Source: Minisyncoccota bacterium (GTDB taxonomy: Bacteria > Patescibacteriota > Minisyncoccia > UBA6257 > 2-01-FULL-56-20). Taken from it: 53,769 bases of DNA. The position numbers were made by a program, and so were the translations under genes. The notes below the pieces were generated by a model. It was not told the DNA's origin, searched no databases, and was given only the letters and a program-made list of their open reading frames with translations. The DNA is taken from NCBI GenBank assembly GCA_025449695.1, contig JANWIW010000029.1:1-53769 (forward strand). Direction: 5' to 3'. This document shows positions 16,258 to 34,072 of the stretch, piece after piece. Position 1 is the first letter of the stretch, and every line of letters starts with the position of its first letter.

Positions 16258-16616
16258 TGTCATTCCGGCCTTGAGCCGGAATCCAGTACACTGCCAATAT
16301 AAGGTGCTATTACGTTTACATTCTGGCGAGTCAGAGGAACGGCACGCTCTACATAGGCGTCACCAACGACCTGAAGAGAAGGGTCTGGGAACACAAGCAC
16401 GACATTCAAGATGGTTTTACGAAGCGCCACGCAGTGCATCTTCTTGTTTATACTGAAGAAACGTCAGATGTACGTGCAGCCATCCAGAGGGAAAAGCAGT
16501 TTAAGAACTGGAAACGTGAATGGAAATTAGATCTTATTGAAAGCAGGAATCCGCATTGGAAAGACTTGTACGAAGAACTCTAGCAATCTGGATCCCGGCT
16601 CAAGGCCGGGATGACA
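16258..16616. mobile_element. GIY-YIG nuclease cassette bounded by 29-bp inverted REP-like palindromes
   Basis: 16258-16286 and 16588-16616 are inverted copies differing by one compensatory pair. Confidence 0.75.
16299..16583 (+). CDS. GIY-YIG nuclease (YazA/YhbQ-like, 94 aa) with ATA instead of ATG; possibly a pseudogene
   Basis: YYVYILASQRNGTLYIGVTNDLKRRVWEHK...AIQREKQFKNWKREWKLDLIESRNPHWKDLY; absent from the ORF track because it lacks a canonical start. Confidence 0.85.
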   Translation: MRCYYVYILASQRNGTLYIGVTNDLKRRVWEHKHDIQDGFTKRHAVHLLVYTEETSDVRAAIQREKQFKNWKREWKLDLIESRNPHWKDLYEEL

Positions 16617-27171: not shown

Positions 27172-28278
27172 ATGAAAGACTACTACAAAATCCTGGGCGT
27201 AGATAAAAACGCCTCCGACGAGGACATCAAGAAGGCGTTCCGCAAGCTTGCCCACCAGCATCATCCCGACAAGGGTGGAGGGGACGAGGCCAAGTTCAAG
27301 GAAGCGAACGAGGCCTACCAAGTCCTCTCCAATAAAGAGAAGCGGGCACAGTACGACCGTTTCGGTACCGCGGATCCGTTTGGCTCCTCCGCCGGAGGCG
27401 GACCAGCGGGTGGGTGGCAGAATATGAACTGGGAGGACCCCGGCTCGTGGGCCGGGGCAGGTTTCCCGGGCGGCGTAGATATGGGCGATCTGGGAGATAT
27501 CTTCGATCTTTTCACCGGCGGCGGGCGCGGGACCCGGACGGTGTCGCACGGCTCGGACCTCGAGCTCTTGGAGGAAATCACTCTGGAGGATGCCTTCCGC
27601 GGCGTCACTAAGCCGGTGACCATCGCGACCTGGATCGGCTGTGGCGTGTGCAAGGGTGAAGGCGGGGATCCTGGCGCGGGCACCGAAACTTGTTCCGTTT
27701 GCGGCGGGCAAGGCCAGGTGCGGGAGGAGCGTAGGACATTTTTTGGCAGTTTCGCCCAGGTGAAGACCTGTGCCCGCTGCCAGGGCCGGGGCAGCCTGCC
27801 GAAGAAGCCCTGCGAGAACTGCAAAGGCAAGGGCCGGGTGCAGGGCGAGCGTTCCACCACCCTCGAGATACTTCCCGGCATCCAGGACGGCCAGTTGATC
27901 CAGCTGAAGGGCTTCGGCGAGGCGGGAGAGCGGGGCACGCAGGCAGGCGATCTTTATGTCCGGGTGCGGGTCAAACCACACGCGAAGTTCGCTCGGCAGG
28001 CTGACGATCTGGTCGTCCGGCATGAACTGAAAGTGAAGGACATTCTTCTCGGGAAGCCTGTCCTCGTGCCCACTATAGAGGGCGGACAGGCGGAGTTCGA
28101 AGTGCCGGCCGGTTTCGACTTGAAGCAGCCCTACCGCATCCCGGGCAAGGGCATGCCGCGCTTCGGGTCGCGCCCTGGCCGGGCAGGCAGCCGCGGCGAC
28201 CTTCTGGTGGACTTCATCATCAAAGCGCCGAAGAAGCTCGCCGAAAAGGAAAGAAAAGTGCTGGAAGAGGGGGATTAG
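27172..28278 (+). CDS. dnaJ: chaperone DnaJ
   Basis: J domain HPD, G/F region, four CxxCxGxG repeats. Confidence 0.98.
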   Translation: MKDYYKILGVDKNASDEDIKKAFRKLAHQHHPDKGGGDEAKFKEANEAYQVLSNKEKRAQYDRFGTADPFGSSAGGGPAGGWQNMNWEDPGSWAGAGFPGGVDMGDLGDIFDLFTGGGRGTRTVSHGSDLELLEEITLEDAFRGVTKPVTIATWIGCGVCKGEGGDPGAGTETCSVCGGQGQVREERRTFFGSFAQVKTCARCQGRGSLPKKPCENCKGKGRVQGERSTTLEILPGIQDGQLIQLKGFGEAGERGTQAGDLYVRVRVKPHAKFARQADDLVVRHELKVKDILLGKPVLVPTIEGGQAEFEVPAGFDLKQPYRIPGKGMPRFGSRPGRAGSRGDLLVDFIIKAPKKLAEKERKVLEEGD

Positions 28279-33519: not shown

Positions 33520-33624
33520 AGGATTCGTAGGATACACGAGGATAAAGAAGACGGGAAGAAGAGGAGGGAAGCATCGCTGCCTCGGGAGGGTCCTCACGAT
33601 ATGCGTAGGTCATCCTCCGCCGCG

Positions 33625-33952
33625 TGCCCCCACCAGGGATCCGCCTGGGCGCTTCGCTAGGCATTCCCTGAATATCCGTTGCCTTCGGCAACTGCAACTA
33701 TTGAAGTCAGAACTGGGACCATCTCCTTATCGCAGGCAGCGAAGTGCCATATGAATAAGCATATCCTTATTTTCCTCTTTGTGCCCCCACCAGGATTCGA
33801 ACCTGGGACCATCTCCTTAAAAGGGAGCTGCTCTACCAACTGAGCTATAGGGGCACAAAGAGGAAAAAATCGAAGCTTATTCATATGACAACGAGCGAAC
33901 CTGCGAGCCCAAAGGGCAAAGGGAGCTGCTCTACCAACTGAGCTATAGGGGC
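33625..33952 (-). pseudogene. outer tRNA-Lys copy split into three pieces by insertions in the anticodon loop and T loop
   Basis: 33918-33954, 33713-33729 and 33624-33637 are identical to successive parts of the intact tRNA. Confidence 0.8.
33782..33854 (-). tRNA. tRNA-Lys(UUU), CCA not encoded
   Basis: GCCCCTATAGCTCAGTTGGTAGAGCAGCTCC-CTTTTAA-GGAGATGGTCCCAGGTTCGAATCCTGGTGGGGGCA cloverleaf. Confidence 0.95.
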
Positions 33953-34072
33953 ACGCGGCGGACAATGAGCGCTACAGGGAGATGAACGGGAGGAATTGAG
34001 CTTATAAACAGGAGAAGTATAGTTCGGCAAGGGCCATTTTTCAAACATAAATGCCGCTTTCATACAAATTCG

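Follow-up and report, generated by a model that had tools for sequence, protein, structure and literature searches.

On the minus strand of a 53,769-nucleotide contig from a Minisyncoccota bacterium (JANWIW010000029.1; the whole contig is called the window here), between positions 33610 and 34044, one transfer RNA (tRNA) gene for lysine lies inside another. The inner gene, a tRNA-Lys(UUU), is intact: ARAGORN calls it at 33781-33854, and the Rfam match, of 71.7 bits, covers 33782-33854. Around it lies an outer copy of the same tRNA, divided into three pieces by two inserts. The larger insert, 188 nucleotides (nt) long, carries the inner gene and splits the outer copy between nt 35 and 36 with no base duplicated; with the insert removed, the outer anticodon loop reads CTTT+TAAGG, that is, an intact CTTTTAA. 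The smaller insert lies in the outer T arm, where 75 nt separate CCCAG from CCTGG and the inner copy has 8 nt. The genome under study (983 kb, 92.7% complete) is called G000, and other G and L numbers denote the other genomes and loci compared. It has 42 tRNA genes, and the inner copy of this nest is its single tRNA-Lys(UUU).

Apart from the tRNA, the 188-nt insert contains no gene. Its two arms are complementary, and the flanks of the inner tRNA pair first as a 13-bp leader-trailer stem (P4) that extends the acceptor stem, then as a 16-bp stem (P3) and finally as a 7-bp stem (P2). Measured as inverted repeats, the arm pairs are 18 nt at 100%, 16 nt at 94%, and TCGCAGG with CCTGCGA. A symmetric 7x7 loop with a 2-bp centre sits 7 bp inside the insert, and TTCGCT is present as a direct repeat of 6 nt, confined to the arms. 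Where the insert meets the outer copy, the anticodon stem, the hairpin P1 and P2 form a three-way junction. Folded as a single strand, 33713-33954 has a z-score of -8.63 (minus strand) or -6.34 (plus strand); none of 200 shuffled sequences was as stable. The outer acceptor stem is itself extended, with a perfect 15-bp core (33616-33630/33948-33962). Upstream of the outer 5' half lies a promoter-like site that is likely to be the promoter of the whole nest; a scan of the left arm of the cassette for such a site found none.

Nearly all of this anatomy had been anticipated by the first-pass annotation, which described an intact tRNA-Lys nested in the anticodon loop of a doubly interrupted one, and each of the parts lies where it had been placed. 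The middle and 3' pieces of the outer copy match the inner copy throughout, excision of the insert restores the anticodon loop as described, and the insert is the long inverted repeat, with the intact tRNA as its loop, that had been proposed. The T-loop insert, estimated at about 70 bp, measures 75 nt, and the 15-bp repeat of the outer stem continues to 21 nt at lower complementarity. One boundary needed correction: the outer 5' half is present, but its proposed start at 33954 takes in two shared leader bases beyond the matching segment.

Features of the tRNA-Lys nest, listed in the direction of transcription (positions are those of the window)
Feature	Position	Strand	Remarks
Promoter-like site TTGAAA-17-TATACT	34016..34044	-	10/12 matches; ~60 nt upstream of outer 5' half
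Extended outer stem, 5' strand	33948..33968	-	pairs with 33610-33630; 21 nt, 90% complementary; prolongs outer acceptor stem
Outer tRNA-Lys 5' half, nt 1-35, ending CTTT	33918..33952	-	35/35 against inner tRNA
188-nt insert	33917-33730	-	splits outer copy at nt 35/36
Cassette left arm: P1, P2, centre, P3 and P4 leader strands	33855..33917	-	fold and inverted-repeat pairs
Hairpin P1	33917-33907	-	left arm, 5' junction side
P2 left strand TCGCAGG	33906-33900	-	pairs with CCTGCGA
Unpaired left centre TTCGCTC	33899-33893	-	left arm
P3 left strand	33892-33868	-	left arm
P4 leader strand	33867-33855	-	left arm, adjoins inner tRNA
Inner intact tRNA-Lys(UUU)	33782..33854	-	ARAGORN and Rfam
Cassette right arm: P4 trailer, P3, centre and P2 strands	33730..33781	-	fold and inverted-repeat pairs
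Unpaired right centre TTCGCTG	33743-33737	-	right arm
P2 right strand CCTGCGA	33736-33730	-	right arm end
Outer tRNA-Lys nt 36-52, TAAGGAGATGGTCCCAG	33713..33729	-	17/17 against inner copy
Hairpin-rich 75-nt insert in outer T loop	33638..33712	-	replaces GTTCGAAT; holds hairpin GTTGCCGAAGGCAAC
Outer tRNA-Lys 3' end, CCTGGTGGGGGCAC	33624..33637	-	14/14 against inner copy
Extended outer stem, 3' strand	33610..33630	-	partner of 33948-33968

To see which parts of the insert are conserved, we aligned the arms of 12 nests from 12 genomes and obtained the structure (P2, P3 and P4) with RNAalifold. In this alignment 95.2% of cells were paired, against 79.5% in shuffled alignments and 41-49% in slid controls. 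Compensatory changes occurred in 32 of the 59 arm pairs, where 19.1 were expected, the covariation score was 0.420 against 0.134, and none of 500 shuffles reached any of these pairing measures. The leader-trailer stem P4 also covaries. Between P2 and P3, 7 nt of each strand stay conserved and unpaired as a centre that reads TTCGCTC in the left arm and TTCGCTG in the right arm; because both read alike (TTCGCT), the folded element is two-fold pseudo-symmetric. The hairpin P1 always lies directly 3' of the 5' junction, with a variable sequence and conserved pairing, and the last base of the insert varies among A, G and T. A search of Rfam at E<=1 returned no family for the arms.

The same arms carry other cargo elsewhere. 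Scanning metagenome contigs with the left-arm motif yielded 58 loci, 14 of which were chance matches. Half of the 58 (29) were loaded in sense, 23 with tRNA-Lys (five of them CUU) and six with tRNA-Ile(GAU). At the other 15 the element lay antisense to the neighbouring tRNA and was either loaded with tRNA-Ile(UAU) or empty; in the tRNA-Ile(UAU) nests it is inverted relative to both tRNA copies. Empty copies have 47-77 nt between the two centres; some lie in T loops of partial 3' copies of tRNAs (Tyr, Met or Lys), L205 has one in an anticodon loop, and the copy at L013 is lodged in an arm of another element. The tip of the element ranges from about 8 nt up to a whole tRNA. The Lys-nest arms and the small empty element belong to a single modular family, which can carry a tRNA in either orientation.

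This family is widespread among relatives. In other genera, a search of 60 related genomes returned long matches that take in the inner tRNA, the arms and an outer half; the order of parts is the same and the sequences differ. We then scanned 125 genomes of the family with a right-junction pattern and obtained 20 places, of which inspection by eye accepted 15 as true nests or remains, left one uncertain (L051) and dismissed four as false. The pattern alone is unspecific, because its backwards control gave 14 matches against the 20 real ones. A degenerate form of it matched at least 120 loci in a wider set of genome contigs; among the matches listed, 113 had no tRNA-Lys or look-alike nearby and seven were nests already found. 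Four nests missed by the strict pattern were added (G016, G021, G035 and G015). In all, at least 18 of the 125 family genomes, in 13 genera, hold a nest or one-sided remains of one. Nests reach up to three layers (L035, L221, L226), and two of them, L109 and L125, lie in records labelled as single chromosomes (898,885 and 827,485 bp). In an order-wide sample of 401 genomes from 32 families, the left-arm motif occurred in 19 genomes at 24 places, with none in the backwards control, and inspection of these places found true nests in three more families (f16, f24 and f29), making at least four families of the order. One narrow motif scan of viral contigs gave two matches, both by chance and lacking the element, and hence no sign of a phage vector.

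Comparison within genera shows the site both clean and filled. In G093, a congener of G027, one clean tRNA-Lys lies between the same upstream and downstream genes that in G027 enclose a perfect nest. In G001, a congener of G000 itself, the tRNA-Lys near SecD is also clean; it belongs to a different allele and is oriented the other way. G000 and G027 have identical outer and inner copies; in G025, G026 and G086 the two are different alleles, and in G025 the differences preserve pairing of the acceptor and T stems. The inner allele of G026 is the outer allele of G086, which has a third allele as its own inner copy. Nests in which neither outer half is interrupted and both are nearly identical to the inner copy number only two of 13 in the genomes and about nine of 32 in the metagenomes. 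In the rest, the outer copy is mutated or truncated, or has hairpin inserts of 7-75 nt in its D, anticodon or T arm. One-sided forms are found in either sense, as a tRNA with the right arm and a 3' half (G105, G026, G015) and as the mirror image, a 5' half with the left arm and a tRNA (G293, G409). Such forms would be expected as leftovers of recombination between direct tRNA repeats. In G017 the right arm is repeated after the inner and outer 3' ends alike.

Two further regularities concern the DNA strand and the flanking sequence. We counted mismatches at P3 positions 4-14 in 42 distinct copies (462 cells); as the copies are related, the count is a hint rather than a test. On the top strand of the element, A.C mismatches numbered 25 and G.T mismatches 5, with the same direction in sense-loaded (16:4), empty (7:1) and antisense-loaded (2:0) copies. 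The positions that are A.C on the top strand are wobble pairs on the bottom strand. The strand that tolerates wobble, and therefore the strand whose fold has been kept, is thus the one opposite to tRNA-Lys and not that of pre-tRNA-Lys. As for the flank, tRNAs that read ANN codons generally have U36 followed by A37. In tRNA-Lys(UUU), tRNA-Lys(CUU) and tRNA-Ile(GAU), the P2' end of the element adjoins TAAG, which is nt 36-39 of the tRNA. In tRNA-Ile(UAU), where the element is flipped, the P2' end adjoins TAAG too, as the complement of nt 32-35. The junction lies at 35/36, with T at position 36, in all four classes. Where the tRNA is inverted, as in tRNA-Ile(UAU), the conserved centre stays on its own strand and therefore cannot be one RNA motif of the pre-tRNA.

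Looking for enzymes that could act on such an element, we found in G000 a single tyrosine recombinase (PF00589), Xer-like and on another contig (C21). It scored 113 bits against TIGR02249, where the cut-off for integron integrases is 265, and lay above the XerA cut-off. No dif-like site built from the P3 arm was found in G000, so that mimicry of a host Xer site by the element is unsupported there. Reverse transcriptase (RVT_1) and HNH domains were not found in G000 either, and RNase III is encoded. G000 also has 11 small GIY-YIG open reading frames (ORFs; 80-136 amino acids (aa)) in its 983 kb, one of them in the window at 16275-16583 (+), far from the Lys nest. Five of the 11 lie within about 205 nt of, or overlap, the genes for tRNA-Gly(CCC), transfer-messenger RNA (tmRNA), tRNA-Ser(GCU), tRNA-Val(UAC) and tRNA-Thr(UGU); the contigs with GIY-YIG genes include C11, C8, C27, C36 and C17. 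The left-arm word TCGCAGGTTCGCTCGT has a 16-nt exact match on C8 (30189-30204), shortly downstream of the GIY-YIG ORF that comes after the tmRNA gene.

Taken together, we regard it as quite likely that the nest was made at the DNA level by a self-rescuing cassette whose outer halves are relics, and on balance likely that the 188-nt insert is one copy of a modular, non-coding palindromic DNA element that rescues the gene it breaks and is moved by an enzyme acting in trans. The first-pass annotation had offered two readings, and the comparison supports its palindromic invader of tRNA loops with a rescue copy: the family recurs across genera and in several tRNA species, loaded and empty and in both orientations, a congener of one holder has a clean syntenic site, and most outer copies are broken. 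The same nesting that it suggested looking for at other tRNA loci is present in related genomes as Lys nests, and in G000 at a second nest around tRNA-Ser(UGA), described below. The mobility of the element is inferred from comparison of sequences.

We picture the process as follows. The element comprises the complementary arms P2 and P3, the unpaired 7-nt centres, the P1 hairpin at one end and the variable tip. Its insertion between nt 35 and 36 would destroy the resident, essential single-copy tRNA-Lys gene, and this would be tolerated because the cassette supplies a replacement. Insertion presumably takes place in DNA, with the folded single strand opposite to tRNA-Lys landing by 5'-TAAG-3' under the action of an enzyme in trans, for which the lone Xer-type tyrosine recombinase and the 11 small GIY-YIG nucleases are the candidates in G000; a single-strand, transposition-like step of this kind is a tentative suggestion. 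The old halves would stay as dead flanks, in which small hairpin inserts such as that of the T loop may then settle. Repeated rounds would build deeper nests, and recombination between the direct tRNA repeats could strip one or both sides. The inner tRNA would most likely be expressed from the old promoter upstream of the outer 5' half, with the arm duplex of the transcript probably cut by RNase III before ordinary end-trimming.

Several observations weigh against this account. No enzyme is linked to the element. A GIY-YIG gene within 600 nt of it was found at none of 60 loci, on which grounds we rejected a GIY-YIG linkage, and among 45 loci of relatives one lies within 1.5 kb (about 440 nt away). 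Y1 transposase was not found in G000. Among the family genomes it occurs in 22 of 125, and in four of the 18 nest holders, which is no enrichment; an IS200-like copy in a relative has unrelated ends, and a Y1 link was likewise rejected. The variable pairs of the 12-genome alignment show G.U and A.C equally often (13 each), which leaves the P3 count as the only source of the strand signal. The TAAG rule comes from four tRNA classes, and the empty T-loop copies show no visible sign of following it. Even where they are interrupted, the outer parts that remain match the inner copy exactly or almost exactly. Old relics should diverge, and this identity therefore calls for gene conversion, very recent events or homing-type repair in which the flanks are copied too. 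In about a quarter of nests the outer tRNA could fold perfectly, as would be expected under splicing as well. Finally, neither excised or circular forms nor polymorphism inside one population were seen.

The alternative that survives best, although we consider it unlikely, is homing driven by a nuclease and involving no intron. A small free-standing GIY-YIG protein would cut the tRNA-Lys gene, the break would be repaired from a cassette allele through the tRNA halves, and pairing between inner and outer copies would add a layer. The outer halves are identical to the inner copy, as co-conversion would yield, both one-sided forms occur, and five of the 11 small GIY-YIG ORFs stand close to tRNA or tmRNA genes. 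There is also a precedent: phage T4 SegB is described as a free-standing GIY-YIG homing endonuclease of a tRNA gene cluster (PMC2330249), and the cassette resembles such systems as selfish DNA that spreads by breaking a tRNA gene region in a genome rich in GIY-YIG genes beside tRNA genes. Unlike them, the cassette neither encodes a nuclease nor has one beside it. The inner copy would not be immune, being identical to the broken target, and homing leaves unexplained the empty copies in T loops and in the arm of another element, the inversion in tRNA-Ile(UAU), the conserved centre and the strand bias.

A second alternative, which we hold to be very improbable, is that the nest arose locally in the host with no mobility, through duplication of the tRNA where it stood, template switching at a palindromic processing stalk being one conceivable mechanism, and that the arms are only a leader-trailer stalk. 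The identity of the outer and inner copies in G000 and G027 would fit, as would the presence of RNase III and the covariation of P4, which has G.U pairs on the tRNA strand. A local origin is, however, hard to reconcile with one arm family that accompanies Lys-UUU, Lys-CUU, Ile-GAU and Ile-UAU, occurs empty and in both orientations, and spans at least four families of the order. Within one genus, the same syntenic locus is clean in one genome and filled in another, and the alleles of outer and inner copies differ in three genomes (G025, G026, G086).

Splicing of the outer tRNA-Lys is likewise unlikely, and the full scheme, in which one transcript yields two tRNAs by splicing the outer copy and trimming the excised insert to a second tRNA-Lys, is in our view very improbable as well. 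Group I introns interrupt anticodon loops of bacterial tRNAs, and archaeal tRNA introns are marked by a bulge-helix-bulge. The insert shares with both the position in the anticodon loop and the exact exon ends, and the two-fold pseudo-symmetric centre of its arms is loosely bulge-helix-bulge-like. The foldable outer tRNAs of some nests, the G025 differences that spare acceptor- and T-stem pairing and the promoter-like site upstream of the outer copy would suit an intron as well. A group I intron ends in G after a 5' exon that ends in U; here the 5' exon does end in T but the last base of the insert is A, no ribozyme core was detected, and the joined exons would be non-functional with 75 nt in their T loop. 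An archaeal intron has a 3-4-3 bulge-helix-bulge at both exon-intron junctions, whereas the exon boundary here is a three-way junction, the central helix has 2 bp and not 4, and most outer exons are broken: 11 of the 13 genome nests are interrupted or mutated. At the nest locus (L001), Rfam at E<=1 matched tRNA only, with no group I, group II or other intron family. Profile searches for EndA (PF01974) and RtcB (PF01139) had no match in the 92.7%-complete G000, and archaeal controls responded. With no EndA, RtcB or known intron RNA found in G000, a T loop that would need a second excision, an arm motif that keeps its strand when the tRNA is inverted and P3 mismatches that favour the other strand, the second reading of the first-pass annotation, a precursor yielding spliced tRNA or tRNA halves, finds no support.

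The nest is real and not an assembly artefact. Public contigs from two runs, which may include the source sample, cover 33623-33891 with no differences, and also 33708-33858; they read through the right junction, the inner tRNA and the T-loop insert at both its ends, and none of those compared bridges the 5' junction (33917/33918), where a 35-nt exact repeat exceeds the assembly word and makes contigs uninformative either way. That misjoined tRNA alleles produced the nest, as that annotation had allowed and as the length of this repeat might suggest, is next to impossible given the compensatory changes in the arms and the same ordered architecture, with differing sequences, in many independent assemblies, including the records labelled as single chromosomes.

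We compared the proposed self-rescuing element with known systems. The anticodon loop and the T loop are favoured spots for the integration of islands in tRNA genes. Genomic islands and prophages enter these genes by means of tyrosine integrases, the principle used by Islander (PMC4383910), and like the cassette they split an essential tRNA gene, restore it with carried sequence and leave displaced tRNA fragments as repeats. Unlike them, the cassette has only 188 nt, no integrase and no gene but the tRNA. Its cargo is the whole tRNA instead of the displaced end alone, the full copy has fragments to either side, forming a nest, and no core is duplicated at 35/36. It also differs from miniature inverted-repeat transposable elements, for inverted arms are present and a target-site duplication is absent at the junctions.

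Closer parallels come from systems that act on single strands. IS200/IS605 transposons and their non-autonomous palindromic derivatives are described as inserting seamlessly, with no target duplication, by a short specific word, and as using folded hairpins of one strand (PMC3201880, PMC5027513). The element recalls them in the hairpin near one end and in the absence of junction duplication; the TAAG flank in four tRNA classes and the A.C:G.T ratio of 25:5 would point the same way, in copies that are related and few. It differs in that the whole is one long hairpin with cargo at its tip, in its target, a tRNA loop, and in that no Y1 transposase was found in G000. Integron attC sites are described as hairpins of one folded strand, in which two paired boxes enclose an unpaired central spacer and the tip varies; one strand is preferred, and successive cassettes are stockpiled (PMC5027507, PMC2727003, PMC6393395). 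The element has this type of anatomy in its P2/P3 pair, 7x7 unpaired centre and variable tip, and resembles attC sites in its strand bias and in the piling up of cassettes. The attC box consensus is GTTRRRY, which the conserved GGTTCGCTC does not fit; moreover, the element holds its cargo within the tip of the hairpin rather than beside the site and targets the anticodon loop of a tRNA, and neither an integron integrase nor an attI platform was found in G000. It is possible, if doubtful, that the element represents a new class of non-coding mobile DNA, one that would combine an attC-like single-strand hairpin with IS200-like seamless insertion, home to position 35/36 of ANN-reading tRNAs beside TAAG, carry a replacement tRNA in its tip and depend on a host enzyme of the Xer or GIY-YIG type.

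Other observations on inserts and repeats accompany these results. Within G000 the arm motif pair occurs in the Lys nest only, and the T-loop insert has no second full-length copy. Directly upstream of the outer copy, at 33963-33971 (-), lies CGCTCATTG, the conserved left-centre word of the arm family, followed by the 21-nt outer stem; together they may be the leftover of an older third layer around the outer tRNA. Empty T-loop copies (L182, L198, L203, L206, L210, L224 and others) are followed by an extra conserved hairpin, GAACCCTnnAGGGTTC, that is absent from loaded anticodon-loop copies. In several genera the outer T loops (L013/L036 in G017, L035 in G063, L033 in G061, L034 in G062, and L223) hold, at the same spot, inserts that start with GCCTGTCC or GCTTGTCC and end in GGA, which look like a second recurrent kind of T-loop insert. 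At L008 (G016, 1380-1700) and L049 (G137, 1200-1560) the outer tRNA-Lys carries the GC palindrome CCTGCCTGCCGGCAGGCAGG or a near copy; because it is inserted in both the D arm and the T arm in one genome and is present again in another genus, it behaves as a tiny mobile plug.

The second nest of G000 lies on the minus strand of contig C28 (27150-28200). Here tRNA-Ser(UGA), at 27968-28058, stands between complementary arms that are unrelated to the Lys arms, flanked by divergent tRNA-Ser-like 5' and 3' pieces with hairpin inserts. The 12-mer TTGCCGAAGGCA of the Lys T-loop insert recurs beside this nest. About 700 nt downstream, past a 146-aa ORF for which no Pfam match was found, lies a 19-nt copy of tRNA-Ser nt 37-55.

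In the main texts of the open-access literature we found no description of such nests, or of tRNA introns of this kind in the candidate phyla radiation (CPR)/Patescibacteria, and a selfish element of this kind, supplying a spare of the very gene that it disrupts, is apparently undescribed. The nests are also an annotation trap, because tRNA finders report one gene and miss the nest around it. If our reading is correct, an essential single-copy tRNA gene of ultra-small bacteria is repeatedly overwritten by an element of less than 200 nt with no gene for its own movement, which survives because it carries its own spare tRNA. This would give selfish DNA a new means of settling in an essential gene and add a new route of tRNA gene replacement and horizontal spread, and it would bear on the origin of split and intron-bearing tRNA genes. 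The anatomy is testable, and its symmetric centre, flank rule and strand bias could lead to a DNA-hairpin-processing activity of Xer-type recombinases or small GIY-YIG proteins. Should the element indeed represent a new class, successive invasions would drive the turnover of tRNA alleles across Patescibacteria.

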